Source: an uncultured Dictyoglomota bacterium
GTDB taxonomy: Bacteria; Dictyoglomota; Dictyoglomia; Dictyoglomales; Dictyoglomaceae
DNA: 64,000 bases
Assembly: GCA_964654465.1 (NCBI GenBank)
Contig: CAZZIO010000065.1
Coordinates: 32,001 to 96,000 of the forward strand
Direction: 5' to 3'
The position numbers were made by a program, and so were the translations under genes. A model generated the notes under the pieces. It searched no databases and was not told the DNA's origin. It saw only the letters and a program-made list of their open reading frames with translations. Position 1 is the first letter of the stretch. Every line of letters starts with the position of its first letter. Of this stretch, positions 4,632 to 51,323 are shown in pieces.

Positions 4632-4730
4632 AATACCTCCTATAAATCTTTAATTTAATTAACTTAATTTTAATTTTACCTTATTATACCAAGTATATTA
4701 TAATAAAAAAAATATTACGAGGTGAAAGGT

Positions 4731-5015
4731 ATGAATTTAAAAGAGCAAATAGAAAACAGACTTAGAGAAATTATAGATCCCGAGGTAGGTATGGATTTAG
4801 TAACACTTAATACCATCGATAAACTGGAAGTAGACAATGATGGAAATGTGAAAGTTGTATTTAGACCCACAACTCCTTTTTGCCCTTTGGGTATTCAACT
4901 TGCTCTATCCATCAAAAAAGTCATTAAAGAAATAGAAGGTGTAAAAAATGTAGATGTAGAGGTGGTAGATTTTATATTTGCAGAACAAGCAAATGAAATT
5001 TTAAAAAATCGATAA
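4731..5015 (+). CDS. Metal-sulfur cluster assembly factor (DUF59/SufT/PaaD-like)
   Basis: DPE...TTPFCP motif; GAGGTG RBS before ATG 4731. Confidence 0.9.
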   Translation: MNLKEQIENRLREIIDPEVGMDLVTLNTIDKLEVDNDGNVKVVFRPTTPFCPLGIQLALSIKKVIKEIEGVKNVDVEVVDFIFAEQANEILKNR

Positions 5016-5022
5016 AAGTTAA

Positions 5023-6984
5023 TCATTCTTTCTTAACAACCCACTCTTCGAAGAGCTCCTCTTTAGGGAGCTCTTCGATAAATATGGAAGGCTTATTAAA
5101 TATATTCATATCCTTTAATCTTTTCATTATGTGAGTAATAACAAAAAGTTCTCTTTTGGCTCTTGTTACTGCCACATAAAAAAGTCTCCTTTCTTCTTCT
5201 AAATTATCCATACTTTTATAAGAAGGAAATTCTCCTTGTACTAAACGGAGAATAAAAACCACATCCCATTCTAAACCCTTTGCCTGATGAATAGTAGATA
5301 AAACCACATAGTCCTTTTCTTCTCCCTCTTCTTCTATTAATTTTTCTCCTGCATAGGTATATAAGGTAAGTTCGCTTAAAAAATCGCCTAAATTCTTATA
5401 TTTTTGAGAAAAATTAATAAGTTGAACAATATCCTTTTCTCTATCTTTAAAATCAGGATATTTAGTTTCCAAATAATTTCTGTACTCTTCGTTATAAAAA
5501 ACAAATAGAATATCTGAAAATCTATCTAAAGGGATATTCTTAATCTTATCCCATAAATCTCTTATCCTTCTTAAACCATCTAAAGTTCTACCACTTACTG
5601 AGATCTGAAATATCCTTTCAAAATCTCTTGTTTCTCTCAAAATAGAAGCAAATTTTTTTGCATAAGCTCTACCAATTCCTGGAAACAATTTAAAAAATCT
5701 CTGGGCAGAAAGTTCATCTTGGGGATTATATAGAATTTTTAATATGGAAAGCATATCTTTTATATGAGCTTGTTCAAAAAATCTTAAACCTCCTCTTACC
5801 TCATATGGGATACCTTGAGTAGTAAGCTCCATTTGTAAAATCATAGAATGATAGTTAGACCTAAAAAGTACTCCCATATTCTTATATTTAATACCTTCCT
5901 GATGCATATTTTTAATGATCTCTGCCACAAATTGAGCTTCTTCTTCATCATCTCTTACCCATACTAATTTGGGTTTAGATCCACTTTTTAATACGGGTCT
6001 TATAGTCTTAGGATACTGATTTACATTTCTCTTAATAATCTCATTAGCCAAAGCTATTATCTCGGGTGTACTTCTATAGTTATATTCTAAATAAAAAATC
6101 TTCGTTCCTAAAAATATATTAGGAAAATTCAATATATTATCAATAGTGGCCCCTCTAAAGGAATATATACTTTGAGCATCATCTCCAACTACCAATACAT
6201 TTTTATTTTCTTCTCTCATAAGTCTTACAATTTCTCCTTGAAGCCAATTTGTATCCTGATATTCATCTACTAAAAGCCAGATAAATTTATCATTTAAGAT
6301 TTTTTTTACCTTCTCTTTTTCCATAAGAAGCTTATACCAAAACATAAGTAGATCATCATAATCTACAAGATTTAGCTCTTTTTTCCTCTCTTCATATCTT
6401 TTAAAAACCCTCTCAATTAAATCTACCTTTTCTATAATATGAGGAGCCTTTATTTTCAAAACCTCATCCCAATTTTTCCCAGTGTTCACCTTATAACTAA
6501 ATATTTCCAAAACTAAATTTTTACCTAATTCTTCCTCCCTCCGCTCCTCTAAACATTCATCAATAAGATCTGCTGAATCCTCTCTATCCAATATGTTATA
6601 ATCTACCCTCATTCCAATTTCCTTTCCAAATATTCTTAAAATTCTATTTCCCACATGATGAAATGTACCTCCCCATATATCTTCAGCCTTTTCTCCTATT
6701 AAAGCAGAAGCCCTGTTTATCATGTTTTTAGCGGCATGGTTGGTGAAAGTTAAAAGCATAATATTCTTAGGAGAATAACCTAAAGCAATAAGATATCCTA
6801 CTCTATAGATAACTGTACGAGTCTTTCCTGATCCAGGTCCAGCAATAACCAAGGAAGGACCATCTGCTTCTAAAACTACTTTTTTCTGTTCATCATTTAG
6901 GTCCTTCTCTATACGTTTAAGAAATTCTTGCTTCTTTTTAGAAGGGAGAATATAAATTTTCTTATCACTAAATTGGTTATCCAT
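5023..6984 (-). CDS. pcrA: ATP-dependent SF1 DNA helicase, UvrD/PcrA family
   Basis: AGPGSGKT, VDEYQDTN, GDDAQSIYSFRGA, NYRST, STIHQAKGLEW, EERRLFYVAVTRA. Confidence 0.9.
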   Translation of the reverse strand: MDNQFSDKKIYILPSKKKQEFLKRIEKDLNDEQKKVVLEADGPSLVIAGPGSGKTRTVIYRVGYLIALGYSPKNIMLLTFTNHAAKNMINRASALIGEKAEDIWGGTFHHVGNRILRIFGKEIGMRVDYNILDREDSADLIDECLEERREEELGKNLVLEIFSYKVNTGKNWDEVLKIKAPHIIEKVDLIERVFKRYEERKKELNLVDYDDLLMFWYKLLMEKEKVKKILNDKFIWLLVDEYQDTNWLQGEIVRLMREENKNVLVVGDDAQSIYSFRGATIDNILNFPNIFLGTKIFYLEYNYRSTPEIIALANEIIKRNVNQYPKTIRPVLKSGSKPKLVWVRDDEEEAQFVAEIIKNMHQEGIKYKNMGVLFRSNYHSMILQMELTTQGIPYEVRGGLRFFEQAHIKDMLSILKILYNPQDELSAQRFFKLFPGIGRAYAKKFASILRETRDFERIFQISVSGRTLDGLRRIRDLWDKIKNIPLDRFSDILFVFYNEEYRNYLETKYPDFKDREKDIVQLINFSQKYKNLGDFLSELTLYTYAGEKLIEEEGEEKDYVVLSTIHQAKGLEWDVVFILRLVQGEFPSYKSMDNLEEERRLFYVAVTRAKRELFVITHIMKRLKDMNIFNKPSIFIEELPKEELFEEWVVKKE

Positions 6985-13701: not shown

Positions 13702-14224
13702 TAAATATTTTTTGGGGATAGCTTTTCTAATTATTGGTATCTCTCTTATTGCCCAAAATTTTCAAATACCTTTGCTTAAGGATCTATGGAAATTTTGGCC
13801 TCTTATTTTCATATACTTTGGAATAAAGATTATCTACAATTCTAAAAGATATGATCATAAAAGGAGGATAAAAATGAGAGAAGAAAGATATAAAATTTTG
13901 AAATTAGTTCAAGAAGGCAGAATTACAGCAGAAGAAGCAGAAGAACTCTTAAAAAAATTAGAAGAGAATCAAAATAGAGGCAAAAGGTTACTTCTATTAA
14001 AGGTAATAGAAAATGGAAATAATATAGTAAACATAAGTATCCCACTATCCTTAGCAAAATGGGGCCTAAAATTTGCTAATTCATATGCAGAAAAATACGG
14101 AGAAAAAATAGATTTCTCTCCAGAAGAATGGGAAGAACTAATAAGCAATCCAGATTTAAAAGGGAAAATTGTGGATATAAATGTACCAGAAAAAAACACA
14201 CAAGTAACTGTGGAAATAGTTTAG
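13694..14224 (+). CDS. LiaF/DUF5668-like TM hairpin fused to a SHOCT-like domain protein
   Basis: Two TM segments with LWKFWPLIFI; MREERYKILKLVQEGRITAEEAEELL. Confidence 0.7.
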   Translation: MFNKYFLGIAFLIIGISLIAQNFQIPLLKDLWKFWPLIFIYFGIKIIYNSKRYDHKRRIKMREERYKILKLVQEGRITAEEAEELLKKLEENQNRGKRLLLLKVIENGNNIVNISIPLSLAKWGLKFANSYAEKYGEKIDFSPEEWEELISNPDLKGKIVDINVPEKNTQVTVEIV

Positions 14225-14227
14225 ATA

Positions 14228-14956
14228 TTAAACATCTATCAATTCATATTTGCCCCAAACTCCTAAATGCTCTCCTATAATAATTATTACTTGATGAACT
14301 TCTGGAAATTTTTTAGCAAATTCTAATCCTATATTTATATCTTCAGGCTTTTGAATAAGATTTCCCACTGCTGTAGCCATAGCATCTGCAAAAATAACAG
14401 AATGTGATATTATAACAACAGCATCAGCTTTGCCAAAACTAAGAGAAGGTCCCACTGTTCCAGAAGATGTACAAATACCCAATACCGAATTTTTAGGAAT
14501 AAGTATCCCTATTTTATTACTCCAGGGAGATTCTCCTGCAAAGATTAACACTTTTCTTTCTTTTTTTGTAGAAATGAAAATATCTCCACCATTTTCAATG
14601 ATTATTTGAGAAGAATAATTTAAAAGATCTTTTCCAACAAACTCGGATATAGCTCCTGCTACAGAAGCCATTGGCCCAACTCCTGCCTTTCCTGTCCAGT
14701 ATGACATCTGTTTAACTATTAAAGGTGCATCCTCTTCCACAGTGTAAGGAGTTAAGGATACCCTAAATAAAGGATCTCTTGATATATAATCTTCTAATTG
14801 TTGTCTATAGAAAGATAAAATTTTTAATGTTTCTTCTTCAAGGTTTTTCTCAGCTAAAACAAATAGGTCACTTTCCCGAATTTTTACAGGAAAACCAACA
14901 AGATCCTCTGTTTTCACTAACCTTCTATATTTTCTTTCTATATATTCTTTTGTCAT
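14228..14956 (-). CDS. UPF0280 family protein (ApbE superfamily, COG2122)
   Basis: VGPMASVAGAI, ENGGDI, GICTSSGTVGPSLSFGKADA, ADAMATAVGN. Confidence 0.93.
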   Translation of the reverse strand: MTKEYIERKYRRLVKTEDLVGFPVKIRESDLFVLAEKNLEEETLKILSFYRQQLEDYISRDPLFRVSLTPYTVEEDAPLIVKQMSYWTGKAGVGPMASVAGAISEFVGKDLLNYSSQIIIENGGDIFISTKKERKVLIFAGESPWSNKIGILIPKNSVLGICTSSGTVGPSLSFGKADAVVIISHSVIFADAMATAVGNLIQKPEDINIGLEFAKKFPEVHQVIIIIGEHLGVWGKYELIDV

Positions 14957-14971
14957 AAAAATCCATAAAAT

Positions 14972-15000
14972 ATGGGGAGAGAAATATATCCTCTCCCCAT
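14972..15000 (-). terminator. Hairpin (terminator or stabilising stem) between the NIL-ferredoxin and UPF0280 genes
   Basis: ATGGGGAGAG / CTCTCCCCAT 10-bp stem with a short T tract on the minus strand. Confidence 0.6.
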
Positions 15001-15010
15001 TTAAATATAT

Positions 15011-15418
15011 CTAAACAAAGAGTTTCATCTCCATAGCATTATATGGACATAGTTCTACACAAATTCCACAAGCTGTACATTTTTGAGAATCAAACTTGAC
15101 AAAATAACCTTCTCTATAAAGAGCTTTTGTTGGACAATAACTTACACAATATCCACAATGTACACATTTATCCTCTAACCATACTACATCTTGAGAAAGA
15201 GGCTGAATCTCAACACCTAAATCTTTCAAATATTCAATTCCTTTTATAAAATTATCATCTTCTCCCGAAAGCTCTAAAACCATTAATCCCTCTTCGTCTG
15301 GAGTGATCGTAGCCTTAAGTATATTAAAATCCAAATTAAATTTTTTCACCAAATTTACCACTACAGGCTTATCAGCAAGTTCCTTTGGAAAATGTAATAC
15401 TATCCTCTCTGTTCTCAC
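15011..15418 (-). CDS. NIL domain-2x[4Fe-4S] ferredoxin (MA1822-type partner of DUF39)
   Basis: NIL domain (FNILKA); CVHCGYCVSYCP and CTACGICVELCP. Confidence 0.93.
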   Translation of the reverse strand: MRTERIVLHFPKELADKPVVVNLVKKFNLDFNILKATITPDEEGLMVLELSGEDDNFIKGIEYLKDLGVEIQPLSQDVVWLEDKCVHCGYCVSYCPTKALYREGYFVKFDSQKCTACGICVELCPYNAMEMKLFV

Positions 15419-16635
15419 TTCTGCTCCACCTCCCCTAAAATCTCTTTTCCACTAAATTGTTTAAATTTTATACCTGACTCTACTCCAGGAAGTGGGGCAG
15501 AAGGAGAAGTTAAAAAGAATTTTCCTTCTTTTATCCATGATTTAAGTATTTCAGCTATCTCTTTAGCTTTAGGATAACTTGATAACGGGCTTGTAGGTAT
15601 CTTCTTTCCAAAAAGCTCTATATAACCACTTTTAAGTTCCTTATAACTTACATAAGTGATAACATCAGATTCTCTATTAGGATAAGCTGTAGCATAATCT
15701 ACTACTGGCGCCAGTATATCCTCATCACTAACAGAGGTATAAAAAGCCATCTCTTCATCTAAAATAGGAATTGGTACACCTATGCCTACTGCCAGTGAGA
15801 CCCCATATCCTTTCATGCTTACCCCACGAAGCCATTTTGCGTTCATCTGTTTAAGATCACCAATAACTGCTAATGTACCTGCTCCACCTTTTGGTATACC
15901 CCTTTCTGTCCTCTCTACAGAAGGATTATGTTGAGTTCCATGCCAAATCACATATCCTATACCACCACCCAAAAATATACGAGTTCCGATTCCTATAGTC
16001 TTATAATAAGGATCATTTAAAAGAGGTGATAATTGCCCTGCACTGGAATAATTTGCATTACCAAACTTAGGTTTTAACATACCTAAGTATGTATACAACA
16101 CTCTGTTTGAAGAGTTTACAGCCACATTATAATTTTGATACGCATTTCTTATATTAAAAAGTACAGCTTCATTAAGGTCATTTATTGTAATATAAGCATC
16201 CAAAAATCTTCTTGGGTAACAATCTGTACCATATGCTTGAGCAGTTATTCTAATTTCTTTACCTGAAACTAAATCCTCTATTACGTGTCCTCCACCATAT
16301 GGGAAATCTCCGGGATAATACTTATTTCTTGGATCATCATCAGGCAAGGCATTTGCACCTAAGAATAAGTCTACTGCTGCGTAAGCAGCATAAGCAGGAA
16401 CACCGTTAAGATATACTTTTCCTCCCCCGAGCTTAATTCTTGGTTTTGTATGGCCAATGTTAAAATATATACCAGAAGAACACATAATTCCAAAAGTCCC
16501 AGTTGTTACAACATCTACTTCTTTAGCTGCTCTCTCTACACCCTTTTCTTTCACGATACCAATCATTTCCTCAGCAGTAACAACCACTGCCTTACCCTGG
16601 CGGATCTTCTCATTAATTTCTTCAATTGTCTTCAT
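15415..16635 (-). CDS. DUF39 homocysteine biosynthesis protein (L-aspartate semialdehyde sulfurtransferase, MA1821-type, no CBS domains)
   Basis: KTIEEINEKI, VDVVTTGTFGIMCSSG, RNAYQNY, SPLLNDP, IGIGTRIFLGG. Confidence 0.92.
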   Translation of the reverse strand: MKTIEEINEKIRQGKAVVVTAEEMIGIVKEKGVERAAKEVDVVTTGTFGIMCSSGIYFNIGHTKPRIKLGGGKVYLNGVPAYAAYAAVDLFLGANALPDDDPRNKYYPGDFPYGGGHVIEDLVSGKEIRITAQAYGTDCYPRRFLDAYITINDLNEAVLFNIRNAYQNYNVAVNSSNRVLYTYLGMLKPKFGNANYSSAGQLSPLLNDPYYKTIGIGTRIFLGGGIGYVIWHGTQHNPSVERTERGIPKGGAGTLAVIGDLKQMNAKWLRGVSMKGYGVSLAVGIGVPIPILDEEMAFYTSVSDEDILAPVVDYATAYPNRESDVITYVSYKELKSGYIELFGKKIPTSPLSSYPKAKEIAEILKSWIKEGKFFLTSPSAPLPGVESGIKFKQFSGKEILGEVEQK

Positions 16636-16718
16636 CCTTTTACCTCCTTTTTCTCAATATCTATTATAACTTCTCCTATATTAACCGCCCTTTTCGGGCA
16701 AGGCATGATCCATAACAA
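16632..16718 (-). CDS. Putative 28-aa leader/small protein MLWIMPCPKRAVNIGEVIIDIEKKEVKG
   Basis: Strong AAGGAGGTG RBS 6 nt before TTG 16718; its TGA stop overlaps the DUF39 ATG (ATGA). Confidence 0.45.
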   Translation of the reverse strand: MLWIMPCPKRAVNIGEVIIDIEKKEVKG

Positions 16719-16758
16719 TTTCACCACCTCCTTAAATAAGGGGTAAAATTTTCCATAT

Positions 16759-16787
16759 ATAATACCAAAAACGTCGGAGTTTTGCAA
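16759..16787 (-). promoter_or_regulatory. Sigma70-type promoter for the DUF39 operon
   Basis: TTGCAA-17 bp-TATTAT on the minus strand. Confidence 0.65.
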
Positions 16788-16802
16788 GATTATAAATTGA
16801 TT

Positions 16803-17765
16803 TTATCTATATTTCTTAGCAGTCTCCATAAAAACCTTTATATTTTCCAAAGGTGTACCTACAGGTATATCACAACCAGAACTTAAAATAAAATTTTTAA
16901 CATCTCTCATTTTATTTAGAAGCTCAATAGTCTTCTTCTCTATATCTTCTTTTTTCCCTTGTAAAAAAACTTTGACAGGATCCAGATTACCTATAATATA
17001 CATATGAGATGGGATTTTTTCAGCAACCCATTTTAAATCTACCAAACTATCAAGACTTAACCCATAAGCATCGCTTTTCCCCATATCTTCTATAAGATGA
17101 GATGTATTACCACAAATATGATATATGAGAGGTCTTTTAAGTTCAGATACAAGATACTTGAAATAGGGTAAAGAAAATTCCCTAAAATAAGCTGGAGAAA
17201 GTATAACTGCAGTTGGTTCCAATACCGCTACCACATCAACTCCTGCATCGAAAAAAGCTTTTGCATACTCTTTGATAACATTCACAGAAAACTCTAGCAA
17301 TTCCTTTACAAAATCAGGATCATCTATTACATTAATACCTAAATCATTTACACCCATAAGTTCACCTGTTAAAGTAAAAGGACCTATAACATAACCTCCT
17401 TTTATTACCTTGAAATTCTGAGCCATTTTTTCAGCCACTCTAATAAATGTTATCATACGTCCAGAAATACCCTTCCATCTTCTTTTTATATCTTGAAGAA
17501 CTTCTCTATCCTTAACCGGATGATCTAAAACAGAAGGATTTTCATTCTCAGGGAAATTAATCTTTAGACCTAAAGCTTCTACTTCTACAGTCAAATCCAT
17601 AAAAGTAAATATACCATCAGGTTGAAACTCTGAAAGAATCATATCCAAAGTTTTAAACTGTATTTCTGGATTTATTAAATTTTCTTTTAAAGTAGTATTA
17701 GTCAATTTTATTCCTGGAGCACCAAGTAAAGGAATTATTAGTCTTTCTCCTCTCTTATCAAGCAT
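16803..17765 (-). CDS. UroD/MtaA-CmuA family methyl-corrinoid:thiol methyltransferase-like protein
   Basis: DLTVEVEALG, GPFTL, HICG (HxC Zn motif), GNLDPV, FILSSGCDIP. Confidence 0.88.
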   Translation of the reverse strand: MLDKRGERLIIPLLGAPGIKLTNTTLKENLINPEIQFKTLDMILSEFQPDGIFTFMDLTVEVEALGLKINFPENENPSVLDHPVKDREVLQDIKRRWKGISGRMITFIRVAEKMAQNFKVIKGGYVIGPFTLTGELMGVNDLGINVIDDPDFVKELLEFSVNVIKEYAKAFFDAGVDVVAVLEPTAVILSPAYFREFSLPYFKYLVSELKRPLIYHICGNTSHLIEDMGKSDAYGLSLDSLVDLKWVAEKIPSHMYIIGNLDPVKVFLQGKKEDIEKKTIELLNKMRDVKNFILSSGCDIPVGTPLENIKVFMETAKKYR

Positions 17766-19444
17766 TGATCTTCCTCCTCAAAATACATAAACTTTATAAA
17801 ATACTCTTGAAATTTTTTATCAGAAGAAAGCTCTACATAATTGACTTTTTCTTTTATCTTTTCTACATCTTCCATAAGAAATCTATTTAGAAGTACAATC
17901 TTAGCTCCTCCAATAGCCGAATTCCCAACCAATATAATTTTTTCCAAAGGTATATGAGGTAAAAGTCCTGTTTTAATAGCATTTTTTCTATTCAAATAAC
18001 TACCAAAAGAACCAGCAATATAAATTTTATCTATTTCTTTATAGATTATACCTGCTTTATTAAGTAAAACCTCTATACCAGCTCTTAAGGCAGATTTTAC
18101 CAGTTGAAACTCCCTAACATCTTTCTGAGTTATCTTAACTTTACCTATATAAAATTCCCCGCCCTTCATAAATTTCCCAGTATGATCTATTATCTTTAGA
18201 TCCAACATTACTGATATAGCATCTAAAAGGCCAGAACCACATATTCCTTTCTCTTCCATATCTCCAATAACCTCAAACTTAACTGTTTCTTCTAACCATA
18301 CATGAGAAATAGCACCTTTCTTTGCAATCATGCCATGTGAAATATTACTTCCTTCAAAGGCAGGTCCTGCAGCCGTAGCACACGCAAAAAGAGTATCCTC
18401 TGACTTTAACACTATCTCACCATTGGTTCCTATATCAATAAGCATAACATTTCCTTTTTCATTCAATAAATTAGTAGCTATAATTCCTGCTACTACATCT
18501 CCCCCCACATAACCTGAGATTAAAGGAAAGACATAAAGTTTTGCATTAAATATATTTCCAAAAATATCTTTTGAATTAAAAATCATTCCATTTCTAAAAG
18601 CAGGAACAAAAGGAGAAAAAGCTATATTTTCCGGAGTTACACCAAGAAAAATGTGAGTCATAACGGAATTACCAGCTATGGAGATAGCATAAATATCATT
18701 TAAACTTATATTATTCTTTATACACAAATCTTGAATTATCTCTGTAATAGCTTTTATTAACTTATCTCTTAGAATCTGCAAACCCTCAGGATTATGAATA
18801 ATAAAATTAATTCTTGAAATTATATCAGCCCCATAAGTTAACTGAGGATTTTCAGTAGAATAGCTATCTATATCGCTTCCATTTGTAAGATCCAATATAT
18901 GTCCTACTAAAGTTGTTGTCCCTATATCCAAAGCAATACCATATACACTTTTTAGTTCTTCTTCCCTTATATCAATTATTTCTTCCTTAAAAAGTACAAG
19001 ATTCCCTTTATAATTATTTCTTCTTAAAAAAGTTGGTAATCTTCTTAAAACAGAAATATCTTGTAAATATATATTTTCTTTTACAGATAAAATTCTTTCT
19101 AAATCGGATCTCAAATCGCTAAGAGAAGGAATTTGCAGAGAAAAAGCTTGTAATGTAATGACGGGAGAAAGGATAAAATTGTTATCTTCTAAAAATTCCT
19201 TTTGTATGTTTATGTCAGTACTTTCTTCTTTTAACAATTCAACCGTTAAATCCTCTTCCGCATATGTCTGACAAGCAAGGCTTATACCCTTATCTAATAT
19301 TTTTACCTTACACTTTTTACACCATCCAGCCCCACCACAATAAGAAGGAATTTTTATATTATTTTCTATCAATATATCTAATAATCTATCCCCTTGAGTT
19401 ACCTTAATTATTTTGTTTTCAGGTAAAACTCTTATATATGGCAT
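17738..19444 (-). CDS. ASKHA-domain reductive activator of corrinoid proteins (RACo/RamA-like) with N-terminal [2Fe-2S]
   Basis: CGGAGWCKKC...LACQ; DIGTTT; GADIISRI; DIGTNGE; AGPAFEG; GICGSG; AGSFG. Confidence 0.93.
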   Translation of the reverse strand: MPYIRVLPENKIIKVTQGDRLLDILIENNIKIPSYCGGAGWCKKCKVKILDKGISLACQTYAEEDLTVELLKEESTDINIQKEFLEDNNFILSPVITLQAFSLQIPSLSDLRSDLERILSVKENIYLQDISVLRRLPTFLRRNNYKGNLVLFKEEIIDIREEELKSVYGIALDIGTTTLVGHILDLTNGSDIDSYSTENPQLTYGADIISRINFIIHNPEGLQILRDKLIKAITEIIQDLCIKNNISLNDIYAISIAGNSVMTHIFLGVTPENIAFSPFVPAFRNGMIFNSKDIFGNIFNAKLYVFPLISGYVGGDVVAGIIATNLLNEKGNVMLIDIGTNGEIVLKSEDTLFACATAAGPAFEGSNISHGMIAKKGAISHVWLEETVKFEVIGDMEEKGICGSGLLDAISVMLDLKIIDHTGKFMKGGEFYIGKVKITQKDVREFQLVKSALRAGIEVLLNKAGIIYKEIDKIYIAGSFGSYLNRKNAIKTGLLPHIPLEKIILVGNSAIGGAKIVLLNRFLMEDVEKIKEKVNYVELSSDKKFQEYFIKFMYFEEEDQCLIREEKD

Positions 19445-20083
19445 TTATGATACTTTGAGTAATCTATTGACCAACTCCACAGAGGAATAAGCATCCTCTG
19501 CATAACCATCTGCGCCAATCTCCTTCGCAAATTCTTCTGTAACAGGAGCACCTCCAACAATAATCTTAACCTTATCTCTTAATCCTTCCTTTTCAATAAC
19601 ATCTATAGTAACCTTCATTTGAGACATTGTAGTGGTAAGAAGAGCTGACATCCCCACCACATCAGGTTTATTTTCTTTTATTGCTTGCACAAACTTCTCA
19701 GGTGGCACATCTATACCAAGATCAATTATTTGATAACCAGCTCCCTCTAACATCATAGCGACTAAATTTTTCCCAATATCATGCAAATCTCCCTTAACAG
19801 TACCTATTACAATCTTTCCTTTAATAACATTTGAGGATTTTGCAATAAGAGGTTTTAAAATTTCCATACCTTTTTGCATTGCTCTTGCAGAAACAAGAAC
19901 CTCGGGAACAAAGATTTCATTTTTCTTAAATCTTTCTCCTATAACACTCATACCTGAAAGAAGTCCTTTGTCTATTATATCTTCTGGGGTAATCCCTTCT
20001 TTTAATGCCTTCTCCACTAATTCTTGAACCTTTTTTCTATCACCTGAAATTACAGCATTTGCAATTTCTTTTAATATTTCCAT
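19445..20083 (-). CDS. Methyltransferase cognate corrinoid (B12-binding) protein
   Basis: FVPEVL cap domain; GDLHDIGKNLV (DxHxxG); SALLTTT; GGAP. Confidence 0.96.
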   Translation of the reverse strand: MEILKEIANAVISGDRKKVQELVEKALKEGITPEDIIDKGLLSGMSVIGERFKKNEIFVPEVLVSARAMQKGMEILKPLIAKSSNVIKGKIVIGTVKGDLHDIGKNLVAMMLEGAGYQIIDLGIDVPPEKFVQAIKENKPDVVGMSALLTTTMSQMKVTIDVIEKEGLRDKVKIIVGGAPVTEEFAKEIGADGYAEDAYSSVELVNRLLKVS

Positions 20084-20097
20084 ATTATAAACCTCCC

Positions 20098-20109
20098 GAA
20101 AACGTTTTT
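20098..20109. promoter_or_regulatory. Candidate LacI-family operator GAAAACGTTTTT upstream of the corrinoid gene
   Basis: CG-centred palindrome AAAACGTTTT beside the RBS; shares ACGTTTTTCTT with the site upstream of the LacI gene. Confidence 0.55.
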
Positions 20110-20155
20110 CTTTTATGAATTATATCATATTTACCTCAATTTTTACCCAAATTTT

Positions 20156-21169
20156 CTATTTTCTTGGAGCAGTACTCTCCCTTATCACCAACTTTGTAGG
20201 AAGTTTAATATGTTGAATAGGAAGATCTGGATTTTTTAATCTTTCTATTAAAACTTCCGCTGCTTTAACTCCCATCTCATAGAATGGCTGAGAAACAGTG
20301 GTTAGTTCGGGTATAGTAAGATTGGCAAGAGTGTCATCAAACCCCACTATAGACATATCCTGAGGTATACGAATTCCTCTTTTGACAAGTATCTTCATAA
20401 TCTGAATAGCCATAAAATCACTAAAAGCAAAAACGGCAGTAGGCGGAATAGGAAGAGAAAGTAACTCATTAATTGCTATTTCTTCATTAACCTGATCATA
20501 AAATATCTTCAGGAGATTTTCATCAAAAGGAATTTTAGCATCCTCCAACGCTTTTTTATAACCTTCAATTCTTTCCCTTACAATAATACTTTCTGGATTT
20601 ATAGTAATATGAGCTATTCTTGTATGACCTAACTCAATTAAATACTTAACTGCCTCATAACTTCCCTGAATATTATCAGCATATACCACATCATGTTCGG
20701 AAAATCTTGGATGCTCCAATATAACCAAAGGCATATTTTTCTTACGAGCAAGCCTACTTACTTCTTCATTTGACAGTGCTCCAACGATCACACCATCAAC
20801 CCTTCTTTCCAACATAAGATTCATATATCTTAGTTCTCTCAATGATTTTCCATCTGTATTACAAAGAAGAACGGTATATCCATTATGTCTTGCCACATCC
20901 TCTATTCCCCTTGCCATATTAGGAAAGACAGGATTAGCTATATCTAATACAAAAAATGCAATAGCTTCAGTTTTTTGCTTTGCTAAACTTCTTGCAATTG
21001 CATTTGGTTTATAATCCAGTATTTTCACAGCCTCAAGTACTCTTCTTCTAGTTTCTTCACTTATTTTTATTCCAGGAGTATTATTAAGAACAAAAGAAAC
21101 AGTTGAACGAGAAACTCCAGCAAGTCTTGCTACATCCCAACTCGTAGGCGCTTTCTTTTTCTTTGTCAT
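20156..21169 (-). CDS. LacI family transcriptional regulator
   Basis: TSWDVARLAGVSRSTVSFVLN HTH; YKPNAIARSL; LTTVSQP; LVIREST. Confidence 0.96.
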   Translation of the reverse strand: MTKKKKAPTSWDVARLAGVSRSTVSFVLNNTPGIKISEETRRRVLEAVKILDYKPNAIARSLAKQKTEAIAFFVLDIANPVFPNMARGIEDVARHNGYTVLLCNTDGKSLRELRYMNLMLERRVDGVIVGALSNEEVSRLARKKNMPLVILEHPRFSEHDVVYADNIQGSYEAVKYLIELGHTRIAHITINPESIIVRERIEGYKKALEDAKIPFDENLLKIFYDQVNEEIAINELLSLPIPPTAVFAFSDFMAIQIMKILVKRGIRIPQDMSIVGFDDTLANLTIPELTTVSQPFYEMGVKAAEVLIERLKNPDLPIQHIKLPTKLVIRESTAPRK

Positions 21170-21186
21170 TTTTCCACCCCTTTTAT

Positions 21187-21198
21187 TAACACGTTTTT
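21187..21198. promoter_or_regulatory. Candidate LacI autoregulatory operator TAACACGTTTTT
   Basis: CG-centred pseudo-palindrome just upstream of the LacI RBS. Confidence 0.5.
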
Positions 21199-21253
21199 CT
21201 TAGTATATTAGCACAAAATTTATATTCTTTGATATAATAATTCTCAAAACATT

Positions 21254-24200
21254 ATGAAAAGAAAAAATATATTTCTTTTATTTCTCCTTATTATACTTAT
21301 ATTTCAAGTCTCTGCTCAACAAAAAGCAGATCCTAAAATATTATGGAGCGCCATCTTAGATGAAAATTTTAACTATGTAAAAAACTTAGAGACTGATGAT
21401 TTTAATACAAACATAGCAAAAGCTTTAATTTTTTTATTAGAAGATAACTTTACAGAATCCTGGAATTACTGGAAAAAAGCACTTCAAATAAATTCTTCCT
21501 CTTATTGGCATGACATCATAGGACTTCTTGGAGAAGGTGCTTGGGAGAATTTAGGGATATTTAAAGAAATTCCCATTATCTTAAAAGATAAAAAAAACCT
21601 TTCTCCTTTCATGGAAAATTTATATTGGAAATCTTTGCTTTCTCAACAAAAGATAAAAGAAATCTATAATTATGCAAGAAGTAAAGGCTTTATTACTGAT
21701 TTTCTTTTCATCGGCCCTTTTGAAAATGTAGGAAATTCTGGATTATATAAAGAATTTCCACCTGAAAAAGAGATTTTGCTAAATCAAAAGTATAAAGGAA
21801 AAAATGGCATAGAAATTAATTGGTTTAAGCCTATGGAAAAAAGTATAAATGGTTATATCAACCTTTATAATTTGTTCTATCCTAATAAATGGAGTACTGC
21901 TTATGCTCTTTGTTATATTTTTATGCCCAAAAGCCAAGAAGTATTAATTAAAATAGGTTCGCCAAATTCCTATAAATTATTTATAGATGACTCTTTTATC
22001 TATAGCATAGAAACAGAAAGACGAAACTTGTTTGACCAAGAGATTATAAAAATTTACTTACCTTTAGGTTGGCATAAATTATTAATTAAAATTTCTAATA
22101 CTATGGGTCCTTTTGGATTTTATTTAGGGATCACCAATGAAAAGAATGAACCTATATCTGGAATAAAGATATCTGAGAATATTCAGAATTATATAAAAAG
22201 GAATTTGTCCTGGGTAAAAATAATCCCACAAAAAGACTTTATCAGAGAATCATCATTATCTGAGATATTTTATTCTTTTTACGGATTTCTTTTAGGTACC
22301 TATTATGGATATAGTGATGCTGGAGAAGAATTTTTAGAAAGAGCAGAAAAAATAAAACCTAAATCCTCATTAATAAAGTTTTTAAAAGGCAAGCTTGAAT
22401 ATGAACTTGGAAACTTAGAAACTGCTAAAAAATATATGGACATTGCCTATAAGGGTAACAGAGACATAAAACTCTCTGCATATTACTTATCTCTCTACAA
22501 CTTAAATTATGGAAGATATGAGGATGCCATAAAGATAATTAAAGAAAATATACACGATAATTCATTCCTTTTAAGATCTCTACTCTCAAGAATCTTCATA
22601 TCACTATCGTGGGAAAAAGAAGTAAATTCAAACGTTAATACATTATCATCTAAATATCCAAACTCTATAGAAACATTATTTTTAATTGGAAAATATTATG
22701 AGATAAAGGAAATTAAAGATAAGGCTATAGATTATTATCAAAAAGCATTATCTATAGACACTGAAAATTGGGAGATGTTTTTAACATTATATAACTTAGC
22801 CGATGAACTAAATCGAATTGATATCTTAGAAAATTTATTAGATATAGCCTTAGAAAAAGATCCAACAAGCACTTGGGCGTACTTAGAAAAGATAAGATTA
22901 TACATGATTAGGGGAGACAAAGAGAAAGCATTTTCCATATTAGAAAGAGTTGAAAAAATCTCCTATCAATATCCTGAAACCTATCTATACAAAGGAAAAC
23001 TTTATTTAGAAGATAATGACGAAAAAGCCATAGAACTTTTCGAAAGAACCCTTCAATTAAATCCATATTTTACAAATTTAAGAATCTATATAAACCATCT
23101 GAAAAGAGAAGAATATAATCTCCCTGATGTTTCTTCTTATTTAGAATCAAAAATTCCAGAAGAATATTTAGAATATCCAGCTGTAATCTTATTAGATCAA
23201 AAAGAAAGAACTTTTTTTAATGATGGAACTTCAAGGATGATTTATCATAAATTAATTAAAATTCTTAAAAACTCAGCAAAAGACAAATATGGCGAAATTC
23301 AAATAGACTACGATTCAAGCTTTGAGAGAGTAAGAATATTAAGGGCAAGAACAATAAAACCAAACGGTGATGAAATTGAAGTCTCAACAATACAGGATTT
23401 TCCAATACTTAGTGATTACCCTCTTTATACTGATGAAAGAAAAATTGTTCTCTCATATCCAGGAATTGAAAAAGGAGCTATCTTAGAGTGTCTATACATG
23501 GTAGAAGAATACACTGGTGGGATATATGGTAAAAACTTTCAAGATATCTTTTTCTTTCAAAACGAGATACCTTCATTATACAGTAGATTCATATTAAAGA
23601 TTCCAAAGGATTTAGAGATAAAATATACCTTTTATAATGGTAACAAAGAACCTAACATAGAAGAAGATAAGAAATGGAAAACATACAAATGGGAAATGGA
23701 AAAACTTCCTGCTATAATAGAAGAACCACTTATGCCTAAAGTAATAGATCTAATACCTCAAGTATGGATAACCACATTCAAAGATTGGGAACAATTAGCA
23801 GATCTTTATTATTCCTTAGCTTACCCTCAAATTAGAGCTGATAAGGCAATTAAAGAAAAGGTTAAAGAATTAATATTAGGTTTGAAAAAAGAAGAAGACA
23901 AAATAAAAGCTATATACTATTATGTAACGTCAGAAATAAGATATGTTGGATTAGAATTTGGTATTGGAGGAATTATGCCTCATAGTGCTCCCAGCATATT
24001 TAGAGAAAAATATGGTGATTGTAAAGATAAGGCAATACTGCTCATTACTATGCTTCAAGAAGCAGGAATAGAAGCGTATTATACTCTCGTAAACACCAGA
24101 TATTCCATATCTTTTAAGAAAGAAATACCTGCTTTTCAGTTTGATCATGCTATAGTAGCTGTACCTCTAAATAATAATTTTATTTTCCTTGATGGAACAG

Positions 24201-24945: not shown

Positions 24946-25575
24946 TCATTTTACAAATCTAACCTCTATGTTTCTTACCTCTGGTATCTTTCTTAGATTT
25001 TCCTCTATTTCTTGTTTTATATGACTCTTGAAAGAATCATCATCAGATAGTAAAAGTTCTATAATTATATCTCCTTCCTCAGTAATTTTTAAATAATTGA
25101 GCAACTTTAGACTAATAATATCCATGGAAATACTCGGATAAACAATCTTAGAAAGAACCTCTATAATCTCTTTTTCATTTAAAACTGAAGAAGTATTTTT
25201 TTCTCCCAAATAATTTTTTATTGCCGACTTTAATCCATCGACAGCTAAAACAGAACAATGCATTTTTACCGGAGGCAATCCTCCAAGAGCCTCTGCCACA
25301 TCTTTCCAGGTAATTTTTAAGGCTTCTTCTATAGTCTTTCCTTTTACCATCTCTGTCATCATAGAGCCTGTTGCAATATTGGAAGCACAACCGAAAGATT
25401 GAAACCTTATGTCTGTAATTATATTTGTATTTTTATCTACCTTAATATAAACAGCAATCTGATCACCACAAGCAGGACTTCCCTCTATAGCAAACCCATC
25501 AGGATTTTCTATAATCCCTACATTTCTTGGATTTCTAAAATGCTCTAAAACAATATCAGAATATTTTAAATTCAA
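24946..25575 (-). CDS. iscU: IscU/NifU Fe-S scaffold with a C-terminal DUF59-like extension
   Basis: YSDIVLEHFRNPRNVG; PACGD, FGCAS, KMHCS cysteines; extra ~80 aa tail. Confidence 0.9.
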   Translation of the reverse strand: MNLKYSDIVLEHFRNPRNVGIIENPDGFAIEGSPACGDQIAVYIKVDKNTNIITDIRFQSFGCASNIATGSMMTEMVKGKTIEEALKITWKDVAEALGGLPPVKMHCSVLAVDGLKSAIKNYLGEKNTSSVLNEKEIIEVLSKIVYPSISMDIISLKLLNYLKITEEGDIIIELLLSDDDSFKSHIKQEIEENLRKIPEVRNIEVRFVK

Positions 25576-25647
25576 CTTAATTTATTTCCTCCTTTTCCTA
25601 CTTTTTTAGTATATTTTCAAAATATATTTTATAACATAAAAATACTT

Positions 25648-25687
25648 TTGACAACAATTATCATATAATTTATACTATTTTAGTATA
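25648..25687 (+). promoter_or_regulatory. iscS promoter TTGACA-17-TATACT with an overlapping dyad TATACTA-TTT-TAGTATA
   Basis: Read directly; a second degenerate copy of the dyad lies at 25597-25613 next to iscU. Confidence 0.65.
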
Positions 25688-25706
25688 TTTTAGGAGGTAA
25701 ATTTAC

Positions 25707-26882
25707 ATGAAAAGAGAAGTATATTTAGATTATGCAGCTACCACTCCTATAAGACCTGAAGTCTTTCAGGCTATGAAACCATATCTAACAAAAGAATTTG
25801 GAAATCCATCCAGTATCCATCATTTCGGAAGACAAGCAAGAATTGCTATAGAGGAAGCGAGAGAAAAAATTGCTAAGGCTTTAGGAGCAAAAAATGAGGA
25901 GATTATATTTACCAGTGGGGGAACAGAATCCAATAATATGGCTCTAAAAGGAGTAGCATATGCCCTCTCTCATAAAGGAAAACATGTAATTACATCCTCG
26001 ATAGAACATCATGCCATATTAGAACCATGTCATTTCTTAGAGAAACTTGGATTTGAGATAACCTATTTGCCAGTTGATAAAGAAGGATTTATTGATCCAG
26101 ATTCATTAAAAAAGGCAATAAGAAAAGATACTATCCTAATTTCCATAATGCATGCCAATAACGAAATCGGCACAATTGAACCAATAGAGGAACTTACAAA
26201 AATTGCTAAAGAATATGAAATATATTTTCATACTGATGCAGTGCAAACAGTTGGCCATATACCTGTAAATGTAGATAAATTAGGAGTTGATCTATTATCC
26301 ATCTCTGCCCATAAATTTTATGGCCCAAAAGGAATTGGAGCACTATATATAAGAAAAGGGACAAAAATACACCCTTTTATTCATGGTGGAGAGCAAGAAC
26401 AAAGAAAAAGAGCAGGTACCGAAAATGTAGCAGGTATTGTAGGAATGGGTAAAGCTATTGAAATCTCAATTTTAGAGCTTGATAAAGAGAGAGAAAGATT
26501 AATCAATCTTAGAGACTATTTTATAAAAGAAATAGAAAAACGAATAGAGGATGTATATCTTAATGGACCAAGAGAGAAAAGACTACCTAATAATATAAAT
26601 TTTAGTTTCGCCTATATAGAAGGTGAATCCATACTTCTTAATTTAGATTTAGAAGGGATAGCTGTATCTACAGGTTCAGCTTGCAGTTCTGCTTCCCTTG
26701 AACCATCCCATGTCCTTTCAGCTATAGGACTTCCGATAGAACTTGCTCATAGTGCAGTAAGGTTTACCTTAGGATACTATACTACAAAGGAAGATTTAGA
26801 CTATACTTTAGAAGTATTAGAAAAAACTGTAAAAAGATTGAGGGATATATCACCATATAAACAAGGATGGAAAATAAAATAG
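25707..26882 (+). CDS. iscS: Cysteine desulfurase (IscS/NifS group I)
   Basis: YLDYAATTP, GNPSS, SGGTESNN, SAHKFYGPKG, STGSACSS. Confidence 0.96.
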   Translation: MKREVYLDYAATTPIRPEVFQAMKPYLTKEFGNPSSIHHFGRQARIAIEEAREKIAKALGAKNEEIIFTSGGTESNNMALKGVAYALSHKGKHVITSSIEHHAILEPCHFLEKLGFEITYLPVDKEGFIDPDSLKKAIRKDTILISIMHANNEIGTIEPIEELTKIAKEYEIYFHTDAVQTVGHIPVNVDKLGVDLLSISAHKFYGPKGIGALYIRKGTKIHPFIHGGEQEQRKRAGTENVAGIVGMGKAIEISILELDKERERLINLRDYFIKEIEKRIEDVYLNGPREKRLPNNINFSFAYIEGESILLNLDLEGIAVSTGSACSSASLEPSHVLSAIGLPIELAHSAVRFTLGYYTTKEDLDYTLEVLEKTVKRLRDISPYKQGWKIK

Positions 26883-48762: not shown

Positions 48763-49524
48763 TTATAATGTGGCCTCATATAATTCATCAAAATAATTTT
48801 GAAGATCTTGTCCCTCTAATAACTTCCTTCCAAAAGCACTTCCCACTATCACACCATCTACTAAACCATATAAATTTTCAATTTGATTTCTATTCCTTAT
48901 ACCAAACCCCCAAATCAAAGGTTTATCTGTTTCCAATCTTACTTCTCTTGCAAAATTAATTCCCTCTTGAGGAAGTTCATCTCGTTCACCTGTAACACCC
49001 TTAACCGATATAAAATAAAGAAAGCTTGGAGCTATTTTTATAATCTTTTCTCTTCTTTCCTTCCTTGTGGTAGGTGATATAAAAAGCACTAAATCTAAAC
49101 CATATTTATTGAAAATGGGTAAAAGATCTTCACTCTCCTCAAGAGGAAGATCTGGTATGACAAGACCTTTTATTCCAATATCCTTAATTTTTTGAAGTCT
49201 TTCTTCTAATCTATCATACAGAAGATTAAAGTATAAAAGAAAAACTACATCTACCACTTTTGGTATCTCTGTATCTTTCAACCAACTTAATGTATTTTCC
49301 AAACTTACTCCACTTAGAATAGCTCTATAATTAATTTCTTGAAGTACAGGGCCATCTGCTACAGGATCAGAGAAGGGAATACCAAGTTCCAATATATCAA
49401 TCTTATCTTTATTTTTAATAATAAAATTCTCTAAAAACTTAAAATCAGGAAAGCCAGCTACAAAAAAAGGGACAAAAACTAATTTCTTTTTTCTGTTTAT
49501 TATTTTATATTGAAGGTTACTCAT
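48763..49524 (-). CDS. trpA: Tryptophan synthase alpha
   Basis: [36 protein letters not shown] 49524 follows a GGGAGG RBS. Confidence 0.95.
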
Positions 49525-50716
49525 TTTTCCCCTCCCATAGAGCATAAATTATTCCAAGATCTTTATCTCCTCTCCCTGATAAATTAACAATTATAAGAGG
49601 TTCTTTTTCAGGAAAATCATCTCTATGCTCTATCAGATATCCTATAGCATGAGCACTCTCTAAAGCTGGAACTATACCTTCTAATTCTGAAAGGGCATAA
49701 AATCCTTTTATTGCTATATCATCAGTAGCAATATCATACTTCACCCTTCCTATTTTAGCTAAGTAACTATGTTCGGGACCAACCCCTGGATAATCAAGAC
49801 CAGCAGAAACAGAGTGAGTAGGAGAAACATTACCATTTTCATCTTGGATAAGATACATTTTAGCACCATGAAGTATTCCAACTTTGCCAAAGTTTATACT
49901 TGCTGAATGTAGACCTGATTCTATACCCTTTCCTCCTCCCTCTACTCCTATAATCTTTACATTATCCTCTAAAAAGGGATAGAAAAGCCCTATAGAGTTA
50001 CTACCACCGCCTACTGATGCAATAAGATAATCAGGTAATCTATCTTCAATTTCTAAAATCTGCTTTCTTGCCTCATCTCCTATTACCCTTTGGAAATCTC
50101 TTACAATCATAGGATAAGGATGAGGACCAACCACAGATCCTAAAAGATAATAACTATCTTCTGGATGAGCGACCCAATCTCTTAAAGCCTCATTTATTGC
50201 CTCTTTTAATGTCCTTGATCCTACCTTTACAGGAACAACTTCAGCTCCTAACAACTTCATTCTCAACACATTCATCTCTTGTCTTTTACAATCTTCTTCT
50301 CCCATATATACAGTACACTTAAAACCAAATAGTGCAGCTACAGTAGCAGTAGCAACACCATGCTGACCAGCCCCTGTTTCTGCTATTAATCTTTTTTTAT
50401 TCATGTATTTAGCAAGTAATGCTTGTCCTACTGCATTATTGATTTTATGAGCTCCTGTATGACAAAGATCTTCTCTTTTTAAATATATCCTTGCTTTTAG
50501 CTTCTCAGAAAGTTTTGAGGCATAATATAGAGGAGTAGGTCTACCCACAAAATTTCTTAAATAATATTCATATTCCTTTTTAAAATTTTCATCTTGTTTT
50601 AGCTTATAGTATGCTAATTCCAGCTGTAATAAAGGTTCCATCAAAGTTTCAGGAACAAATCTTCCCCCAAACTCACCAAAATAGCCCCTTTCATCAGGAA
50701 GCTTTTCCGTCCTCAT
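49517..50716 (-). CDS. trpB: Tryptophan synthase beta
   Basis: [47 protein letters not shown]. Confidence 0.98.
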
Positions 50717-51323
50717 AACTGTAATCCCTCACCTTTCTCATAAATTTTGATATTTTTAAAAGGTCCTTCTTACCTATTTCAAATTCCACACCACTCGAAA
50801 GATCTATACCAAATGGTTTTAACCTAAGAACATCATAAACATTATCTTCTCTAATTCCACCTGCTATAATCGTTTTTGAGTTTATAATCCTTTTAGCCCT
50901 GCTTAGAAACTCCTCAAAAGATAAAGCAGAATTTTTACTCCTATCTAAAAGAACATAGGAAAACTGAGAAAAATAACTAACTCTTTCAGCCCAGTCTTCA
51001 TACTGATCTGTGTTTATTGCCTTTATAAGAAAATACTCTCTAAACTTTTTCATAAACTCTAAATTCTCATCTCCATGAAACTGAATACCATCTAAAGAAA
51101 CAATATCGAGAATTTTTTTAATTTCTTCTTCGCTCTGATTCATAAAAACTCCAATCTTCATAATTTTTAATCTATTAAGATGGGGACCAAGCTTTTCAAG
51201 CTTTTCAAAAGATATAAATCTTGGTGACCATGGTACAAAAACCAAACCAATAGCTGAAACTCCTTCTATCTCACAATGTAATGCAGTAATAATATCAGTT
51301 ATTCCACAGATTTTAATCCACAT
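50694..51323 (-). CDS. trpF: Phosphoribosylanthranilate isomerase
   Basis: [24 protein letters not shown]. Confidence 0.93.

Follow-up and report, generated by a model that had tools for sequence, protein, structure and literature searches.

Seven minus-strand open reading frames (ORFs) are located at exactly positions 14228-21169 of a 64,000-nt stretch of DNA from an uncultured Dictyoglomota bacterium of the family Dictyoglomaceae (assembly GCA_964654465.1, contig CAZZIO010000065.1, forward-strand positions 32,001 to 96,000; the whole stretch is called the window here). They encode a LacI-family repressor, a corrinoid carrier protein (CorP), a reductive activase (RACo), an MtaA-like zinc methyltransferase, a DUF39 protein, a ferredoxin with a NIL domain (NIL-Fd) and a UPF0280 protein. 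The best reading of this array is a lineage-specific juxtaposition of independent units. The most likely function of the corrinoid unit, to which we assign about an even chance, is the demethylation of xylan-derived 4-O-methylglucuronate together with two enzymes encoded on another contig, the UroD-family protein UroD2 and a GH67 alpha-glucuronidase. This proposal is built on gene identities, zinc ligands, synteny, the phyletic pattern and the conservation of an operator and a leader, from which we infer which compound is the substrate, which way each methyl transfer runs and what accepts the methyl group.

GH67 would free 4-O-methyl-D-glucuronate from imported xylo-oligosaccharides. UroD2 would act as methyltransferase I (MT1) and transfer the O-methyl group to Co(I)-CorP, and the MtaA-like protein, as methyltransferase II (MT2), would pass the methyl from methyl-Co(III)-CorP to a thiol; RACo would re-reduce CorP after oxidation. 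A first unit would then consist of LacI, CorP, RACo and the MtaA-like protein, with a sugar-responsive repressor and with UroD2 as the missing partner. The second unit, DUF39/NIL-Fd with UPF0280 loosely attached, would form homocysteine from aspartate semialdehyde and sulfide.

The source genome assembly (G000; 1.91 Mb, 72 contigs, 99.97% complete) was compared within a set of 11 Dictyoglomaceae genomes from three genera, here g1/g2 (G000-G005) and g3 (G006-G010). An initial annotation of the window had listed the seven co-oriented genes, and its coordinates and family assignments agreed with our domain searches. The features of the corrinoid unit are as follows.

20156..21169, minus strand: LacI-family repressor gene, first in the corrinoid unit (LacI helix-turn-helix plus Peripla_BP_3/1)
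20099..20108, no strand: LacI-type operator candidate, 10-bp palindrome AAAACGTTTT, between the -10 box and the Shine-Dalgarno (SD) sequence of CorP
19445..20083, minus strand: corrinoid (B12) carrier CorP, MtaC/MtgC/MetH-cap type (B12-binding_2 plus B12-binding)
17738..19444, minus strand: RACo/RamA-type ATP-dependent reductive activase (Fer2, RACo_linker, Raco_middle, RACo_C_ter)
16803..17765, minus strand: MtaA-like UroD-family zinc methyltransferase (URO-D, 211 bits; His216-x-Cys218...Cys298)

UroD2, GH67 and the corrinoid unit

Only one methyltransferase is encoded inside the window, and no MT1 or MeTr gene was found among its 51 other ORFs of at least 100 aa, all of which were scanned; the initial annotation had likewise seen none. 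The candidate methyl-donor enzyme lies beyond the window. The source genome has only two UroD-family genes, and the second, UroD2 (349 aa, 24-26% identical to the MtaA-like protein), is found on contig C22 directly downstream of the GH67 alpha-glucuronidase gene; a LacI gene and genes for an Opp-type ATP-binding cassette (ABC) transporter belong to this locus as well. GH67 enzymes release 4-O-methylglucuronate from xylo-oligosaccharides. The GH67 enzyme of D. turgidum is active on xylan and xylo-oligosaccharides; the text of that study does not mention uroporphyrinogen, cobalamin or methionine (PMC5167688). UroD2 is followed on C22 by same-strand genes for a CDF-family cation (zinc-type) efflux protein and a radical SAM protein (L132:5908-6831 and 4671-5654).

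The zinc sites of the two UroD-family proteins were compared with those of their relatives. H216-x-C218 and C298 of the MtaA-like protein were invariant in 15 of 15 relatives and align with the identical residues of the solved MtaA structure 4AY7, which are known as its zinc ligands (see also PMC10418091). UroD2 has H-N-D at the position of H-x-C and Gly at that of the second Cys. The pattern H-N-D...SAGGG was invariant in 15/15 members of the UroD2 family, and H-N-D/Gly was also seen in the eight Dictyoglomaceae UroD2 orthologues returned by a motif search. Within the UroD superfamily, His-Cys-Cys marks S- and Se-methyltransferases, while O-methyltransferases have one or both Cys replaced (PMC10418091). 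By this scheme the zinc motif of the MtaA-like protein, which the initial annotation had already pointed out, is of the thiol type, and UroD2, with its Cys ligands replaced, has the zinc site of an O-demethylase MT1. In a phylogenetic tree, the UroD2 family (support 95/94) and the MtaA-like family including the copy of G006 (93/95) were separated, next to a third group of UroD paralogues.

The MtaA-like protein stayed below the cut-offs of all models for MtaA and MtbA (MtaA_Meth, 150.4 versus 400; MtbA, 128.5 versus 600; TIGR01463, 180.8 versus 235.4; PRK06252, 175.3 versus 244). It has 1091 relatives at E ≤ 1e-20, and a look-up in the ESM Atlas returned URO-D clusters only.

GH67 was located immediately upstream of UroD2 in all nine family genomes that have both genes on one contig. 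Three g3 genomes (G007, G009, G010) harbor a tight, co-oriented operon of SBP_bac_5, two permeases, two ATPases, CorP, RACo, an MtaB-like protein, GH67 and UroD2. CorP of these genomes is 74-75% identical to its orthologue, and RACo 51-52%, which is not below the values within g1. CorP abuts GH67-UroD2 in G006, and an MtaA-like gene (36% identical, with His-Cys-Cys) together with RACo is located elsewhere in that genome. GH67 and CorP are each present in 10/11 family genomes and absent only from G008 (99% complete), in which no UroD2 or MtaA-like match was found either.

The MtaB-like protein of g3 (L168:8567-10021 in G010; also in L166 and L167) reached 478.4 bits with MtaB_Meth, for which the cut-off is 720, and tblastn did not find it in the source genome. 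Its gene is placed between RACo and GH67 in a xylan-utilization operon of a non-methylotrophic fermenter. Locus L094 has a 44% identical relative next to its UroD, CorP and MtaA-like genes.

The UroD2 family comprises 3144 proteins at E ≤ 1e-30, and we inspected its context in 80 metagenome loci. GH67 was adjacent to UroD2 in seven of them, four Dictyoglomaceae-like and three with a UroD2 only 42-43% identical and a divergent GH67. A scan of 127 ORFs from 40 loci, each no more than two positions away from UroD2 (some exceptionally long ones excluded), revealed the glucuronate isomerase UxaC (L197, L259), UxuA (L204), UxaE (L259), 2-keto-3-deoxy-6-phosphogluconate (KDPG) aldolase (L220, L237), TRAP transporter genes (five loci), a glucuronoyl esterase of family CE15 (L250), a fragment of GH67 (L249), GH28 (L248) and GFO/IDH/MocA oxidoreductases (eight loci), and many loci had none of these types. 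UroD2 stands with a corrinoid protein and an activase in L189, L223, L253, L261 and L263, which is not the case in the source genome. The order in L263 is UroD, UroD2, CorP, Pterin_bind, RACo; since this is the canonical layout of donor enzyme, carrier, tetrahydrofolate methylase and activase, it places UroD2 on the donor side. Zinc pattern and neighborhoods together led us to read UroD2 as a probable MT1 for a methylated uronate. The second methyltransferase varies: it is of the pterin type in L263, MtaB-like in the three g3 genomes and MtaA-like in g1, g2 and G006.

The genes of the corrinoid unit are tightly packed, with the RACo start 1 nt past the CorP stop and an overlap of 28 nt between the MtaA-like and RACo genes. 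CorP matches PF02607 (94 bits), PF02310 (114.2 bits) and positions 648-859 of the MetH model (172.3 bits), and it passes TIGR02370 (221.1 versus 215.3). Its D99-x-H101-x-x-G104 motif was invariant in 11/11 aligned relatives. Among five B12-binding matches in the source genome CorP is by far the strongest; judged by frame lengths and partial matches, and with the cap family not searched for genome-wide, the other four are probably not carriers of the CorP type. RACo scored 405 bits with the AcsV-like model, under its cut-off of 800.

The LacI protein is 84-97% identical among g1/g2 relatives and remained under every NCBIfam equivalog cut-off (top match RbsR-like, 256.7 versus 382). Control by LacI, which the initial annotation had suggested, is consistent with the position of the putative operator, downstream of the -10 box and ahead of the ribosome-binding site of CorP: the sequence was kept as (G/T)AAAAACG(T/A)TTT(C/T) at the same position in 6/6 g1/g2 genomes. 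Exact copies of the 10-mer occur three times in the source genome, all promoter-proximal, ahead of CorP, of xylB (xylulokinase; TIGR01312, 620.7 versus 380.25) and of an SBP_bac_5/GH5 operon. At the GH67 locus of G000 and G001, the divergent ABC/LacI promoter contains a copy with one mismatch, and an exact copy is found about 60 nt ahead of the MtaA-like-RACo pair in G006. The attempt to define the LacI regulon from the operator was given up: ten base pairs are not enough for this, and two of the copies adjoin paralogous LacI genes. The xylB gene on C18 (L180:4287-7252), with the 10-mer upstream, is followed after 146 nt by an archaeal-type S-adenosylmethionine (SAM) synthetase gene (PF01941) and then by a class I lysyl-tRNA synthetase gene. 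A link of the MtaA-like genes to FGGY kinases was also rejected: the kinases of L047 and L052 are pentulose/ribulokinase-like, only 33% identical to xylB of the source genome and not its orthologues.

Several observations weigh against demethylation of 4-O-methylglucuronate by this unit. The functional tie between UroD2 and CorP and the MT1 and MT2 roles would follow from zinc-ligand logic and genomic context only. Five genomes of other phyla with an MtaA-like orthologue have neither GH67 nor a close UroD2, and the MtaA-like family is therefore not confined to this substrate. The joint loss in G008 is a single event and, since the family genomes are kin, suggestive rather than statistical. UxaC and UxuA were not found in the source genome, so that the gain from freeing glucuronate is not obvious; a KDPG aldolase homologue is present. 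The 10-mer also precedes the GH5 locus, which has its own LacI, and may serve several LacI paralogues; because of this possible sharing we count the operator as weak support only. Finally, if the MtaB-like protein worked in its canonical direction, from methanol to cobalt, the g3 operon would contain two donor enzymes and no acceptor enzyme, and this would call for an unlinked MT2, possibly the S-methyl_trans protein described below.

The DUF39 unit and its contact with the corrinoid unit

The gap between the MtaA-like gene and DUF39 is 167 nt, and DUF39 and NIL-Fd overlap by 4 nt. The following features belong to this part of the array.

16759..16787, minus strand: promoter-like site of the DUF39 unit (TTGCAA, 17 nt, TATTAT with upstream TG)
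16683..16712, minus strand: invariant core of the DUF39 5' leader (31-nt block of the family alignment)
15415..16635, minus strand: DUF39/HcyBio homocysteine-synthesis enzyme (PF01837, 515.6 bits)
15011..15418, minus strand: NIL plus two [4Fe-4S] ferredoxin, partner of DUF39 (NIL 66.3, Fer4 62.5 bits)
14972..15000, minus strand: terminator-like hairpin between NIL-Fd and UPF0280 (12-pair stem, then T-rich tail)
14228..14956, minus strand: UPF0280/COG2122 (ApbE-like), linked to the DUF39 pathway (NF003323, 271.8 versus cut-off 271)

Corrinoid and homocysteine genes are in contact only locally, within two genera of a single family. Synteny extends over the whole set of seven genes in G001, G003, G004 and G005, and the contig of G002 terminates inside DUF39. 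CorP, RACo and the MtaA-like gene adjoin DUF39 in G000-G005 only, and in g3 DUF39 and CorP are on different contigs. Outside the family, we analysed loci with MtaA-like relatives from species genomes, 80 in total, of which three were from Dictyoglomaceae and 77 from many other phyla (37-60% identical). DUF39, NIL-Fd or UPF0280 was within reach in none of these 77 loci (48 of them with at least 3 kb downstream), and DUF39 was found in 0/5 of the other whole genomes that carry an MtaA-like orthologue. CorP was present in 29 of the 77 loci, RACo in eight, LacI in five and a second UroD paralogue in nine. When the 668 neighboring ORFs were clustered, nothing beyond UroD paralogues, CorP, RACo and Met_synt_B12-like proteins occurred in more than five loci. 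The linkage of the MtaA-like gene with DUF39, which the initial annotation had read as a candidate methionine route but had also called possibly coincidental, thus does not hold beyond g1/g2.

DUF39/NIL-Fd is a separate unit with a predicted promoter and leader of its own. A -35 TTG, a TGGTAT(T/A)AT box and an SD-like GGAGG upstream of DUF39 were kept in the alignment of 10/10 family genomes, and across the same genomes the 31-nt leader block showed one variable position. Promoter and leader were kept although five g3 genomes have unrelated DNA further upstream. The statement of the initial annotation that DUF39 has its own promoter agrees with this conserved promoter-like site. The leader block is present as a single copy in the source genome. 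None of the 21 predicted pairs of the leader hairpins covaried, since nothing varies there. The leader may sense methionine, SAM or homocysteine, or may encode a leader peptide. No Rfam family reached its gathering score in the window, and none matched at E ≤ 5 in 14000-21400. A riboswitch between the MtaA-like gene and DUF39 was rejected as a candidate: there was no Rfam match, and the 167-nt spacer folded no better than shuffled sequences (z = -1.46). Two short frames (…WIMPCPKRAV… and MDHALPEKGG…), with unconserved tails, cross the leader (window 16636-16760, minus strand).

Contigs from one metatranscriptome run, derived from a relative, cover 14228-15940, 16010-16724 and 18847-21148, and none bridges 16725-16803; such contigs cannot show transcript starts or rank genes. 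This run alone contained 5% of the sampled words.

DUF39 is present in 11/11 family genomes and is directly followed by NIL-Fd in 10/10 family loci examined. UPF0280 follows NIL-Fd in G000, G001, G003 and G004, is about 2.2 kb off in G005 and does not occur within about 1.1 kb of NIL-Fd in the five g3 loci. The homocysteine pathway of DUF39, NIL-ferredoxin and COG2122 is known from methanogens and Desulfovibrio (PMC5764234). All three families are present in the source genome with strong scores; compared with the known pathway there is nothing unusual except the conserved leader and the neighboring corrinoid unit. DUF39 is probably the only homocysteine route of the source genome, because no genuine Cys_Met_Meta_PP enzyme was found in it (best score 27.6 bits). 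Genes for a NifU-like scaffold and a NifS cysteine desulfurase (window 24946-26882) lie divergently about 4 kb off the cluster and may have a bearing on the Fe-S and persulfide chemistry of the DUF39 pathway.

The acceptor and alternative explanations

If the MtaA-like protein is the MT2, sulfide or another small thiol, serving methyl disposal, is a plausible acceptor at a little below an even chance. Homocysteine, yielding methionine, appears possible but on the unlikely side, and the remaining probability falls to other acceptors. Reportedly (Sauer and Thauer, 1997), an MtaB-type enzyme working in reverse and releasing methanol is thermodynamically plausible at low methanol. Methyl-tetrahydrofolate formation by a UroD-type MT2 was considered and dropped; the known bacterial MT2s, MtqA among them, are grouped with AcsE and MetH (PMC13222342).

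The initial annotation had raised the possibility of a split B12-dependent methionine synthase. In the extended form of this idea, the MtaA-like protein would methylate homocysteine from the methyl-corrinoid, it would make up a folate-independent B12 methionine synthase together with UroD2, CorP and RACo, with a sugar methyl ether as the methyl source, and the adjacency of DUF39 would be functional, an explanation that we consider doubtful. The thiol-type His-Cys-Cys site and the neighborhood of DUF39 in G000-G005, that is in two genera, speak for it. The genome content agrees: no MetH pterin module was found in the source genome, where the sole PF00809 match is a 398-aa FolP beside folK, and comA (PF02679) was not found either, other routes to coenzyme M (CoM) not having been searched; the absence of CoM presumed by the initial annotation is in line with this. 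Without UxaC and UxuA, the methyl group rather than the sugar skeleton may be the useful product. A corrinoid protein that serves methionine synthesis as well as catabolic demethylation has been described (PMC12478193), and so has a split MetH activated by a RamA-like protein (PMC5764234); in the source genome, RACo would correspondingly take the place of the activation domain of MetH.

The search for metE, in contrast, went against a need for such an enzyme. The source genome retains a split MetE on C67 (L135:5424-7426; neighboring genes for 325 and 342 aa that overlap by 4 nt), the catalytic half of which passes the NCBIfam model "methionine synthase" NF003317 (464.4 versus 406), and an operon of MTHFR, DUF5981, FolD and Fhs. 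The absence of DUF39, NIL-Fd and UPF0280 from the 77 orthologous loci and of DUF39 from the five other carrier genomes also disfavors this explanation, and the exchange of the MtaA-like for the MtaB-like protein within g3 fits methyl removal better than methionine synthesis. By a rough estimate, the methyl flux from xylan side chains would moreover far exceed the demand for methionine. Overall, the interpretation of the initial annotation is supported in part. The split MetE lies between ilvD and a GH38 alpha-mannosidase gene, in an archaeal-style arrangement.

Thermotogota provided evidence on both sides. In a sample of 81 genomes, S-methyl_trans was present in none of the four carriers of the MtaA-like gene (G041, G043, G101, G102) versus 58 of the 77 non-carriers. 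MetE, checked in G041 and G043, was found in neither, yet both have Cys_Met_Meta_PP enzymes. A methionine-synthase gap may lie behind this pattern, or else incompleteness of the genomes, auxotrophy or a lineage effect; the carriers are related to one another, and both genes are missing from G104 and G105. Two clusters from Bacteroidota and Ignavibacteria metagenome-assembled genomes (L060:9175-14745, L122:3557-6921) combine a corrinoid protein, UroD paralogues and a lone S-methyl_trans gene with the MtaA-like orthologue, which would be redundant there as a second homocysteine methylase. These clusters also hold a Met_synt_B12-like protein or CobW, plus an AraC regulator, and look like a MetH with its pterin module replaced by UroD-type methyltransferases.

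A complete route by which the 4-O-methyl group of xylan glucuronate is harvested by UroD2 and carried via the B12 protein and the MtaA-like enzyme to DUF39-made homocysteine, amounting to a folate-independent methionine synthase, is unlikely in our estimate. Such a sugar-fed methionine synthase nevertheless is a possible, live minority reading.

It is quite improbable that the methyl group reaches homocysteine via the unlinked S-methyl_trans protein or the MetE core, with the MtaA-like protein (MtaB-like in g3) as a second donor-side enzyme that would load the CorP used by UroD2 from presumed methylthio compounds (or methanol). The source genome has a lone S-methyl_trans gene (PF02574, homocysteine methyltransferase) on C64, unlinked to any corrinoid gene. 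Its product scored 169.5 bits with the MetH model and 294.8 with the model for the bifunctional homocysteine methyltransferase/MTHFR, and the gene is present in 11/11 family genomes. The L060 and L122 clusters, in which CorP, UroD paralogues and S-methyl_trans stand together, are in agreement with this explanation. So is the fact that MtaB-type enzymes normally load cobalt from methanol. UroD-family S-methyltransferases are able to act as demethylases (PMC10418091). G008, however, keeps S-methyl_trans and has lost CorP, so the protein does not depend on CorP, and there is no corrinoid linkage in the source genome.

A salvage of methyl-sulfur or methyl-selenium compounds of the mlp type, unrelated to xylan and with incidental adjacency of GH67 (g3) and DUF39 (g1/g2), is very improbable. 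Kountz and Balskus connect MtaA-like clusters that include a corrinoid protein and Ram/RACE with the metabolism of methyl-S/Se compounds, and they showed that one Mlp methylates selenide and sulfide (PMC10418091). Type 1 clusters, however, by definition contain Mlp2 plus Mlp3, and the present cluster has a single MtaA-like gene; the unit stands under a LacI regulator with a sugar-type candidate operator, and CorP and RACo are inside the g3 GH67 operon, CorP having been lost together with GH67.

Relation to known systems and neighboring genes

Demethylation of 4-O-methylglucuronate, the function that we favor, would resemble the three-component corrinoid O-demethylases (Odm/Vdm of Acetobacterium dehalogenans, Mtv of Moorella, Mto of Methermicoccus), which have a UroD-family MT1, a cap-plus-Rossmann corrinoid protein, a second methyltransferase and a RACo/RamA-type activase, with a Cys of the donor zinc site replaced (PMC10418091, PMC13222342). 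Those systems act on aryl methyl ethers and use a pterin-binding MT2 that methylates tetrahydrofolate, whereas the context here is that of a carbohydrate (alkyl) methyl ether and the MT2 candidate is a UroD-family His-Cys-Cys protein, or MtaB-like in g3; the source genome has no pterin-type MT2, and its donor and acceptor genes are on separate contigs. The MtaABC methanol:coenzyme M system of Methanosarcina shares the MtaA-like fold with the H-x-C...C of 4AY7, a carrier (MtaC) which CorP resembles and, in g3, an MtaB homologue (478.4 bits). It differs in that the MtaA/MtbA cut-offs were missed, no comA was found, and the bacterium is fermentative with a sugar-related regulator and context. Type 1 mlp clusters contain at least Mlp2 and Mlp3 and S/Se accessory genes, unlike the single MtaA-like gene with LacI and a GH67/xylan link; the text of PMC10418091 has no mention of sugar, carbohydrate or Dictyoglom.

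Split MetH systems with RamA-like reactivation (Phaeobacter, Desulfovibrio; PMC5764234) also have a separate corrinoid protein and a DUF4445/RACo-type activase, and MtgBCD of Ruegeria (PMC12478193) offers, as an idea, one carrier for catabolic demethylation and methionine synthesis. Both comprise a PF02574 homocysteine domain plus a pterin-binding or MtgD module, whereas the clustered methyltransferase here belongs to the UroD family and the PF02574 protein is unlinked and survives CorP loss in G008. A methyl ether is stripped from a polysaccharide-derived sugar by the P450 6-O-methyl-D-galactose demethylase of marine bacteria, an oxygen-dependent monooxygenase that releases formaldehyde (PMC6292453); we propose an anaerobic methyl transfer via cobalt instead.

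We found no publication on corrinoid-dependent demethylation of 4-O-methylglucuronate or any methylated sugar in a search that left subscription journals and supplementary files outside. An anaerobic route for removing the methyl ether of 4-O-methylglucuronate was not found in this literature either, the only carbohydrate demethylase returned being the P450 enzyme (PMC6292453). Hardwood and grass xylans are decorated with 4-O-methylglucuronate. If our proposal is right, a B12-dependent methyl transfer wired to GH67 would fill this anaerobic gap, corrinoid O-demethylases would extend from lignin aromatics to carbohydrates, and a very large unannotated UroD-like family (the 3144 UroD2 and 1091 MtaA-like relatives) would obtain a function. 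With homocysteine as acceptor, the system would represent a methionine synthase of a new type, with a sugar of the plant cell wall as its methyl source, and the MtaA-like family would be the missing methionine synthase of those Mesotoga/Kosmotoga-type Thermotogota that have no MetH homocysteine domain. With sulfide or water as acceptor, thermophiles that degrade xylan would release methanethiol or methanol, a source so far overlooked.

Elsewhere in the window, a complete trp operon (trpE, G, D, C, F, B and A at 48763-55050) is preceded by a T-box leader (111.5 bits) at 55111-55384 on the minus strand.

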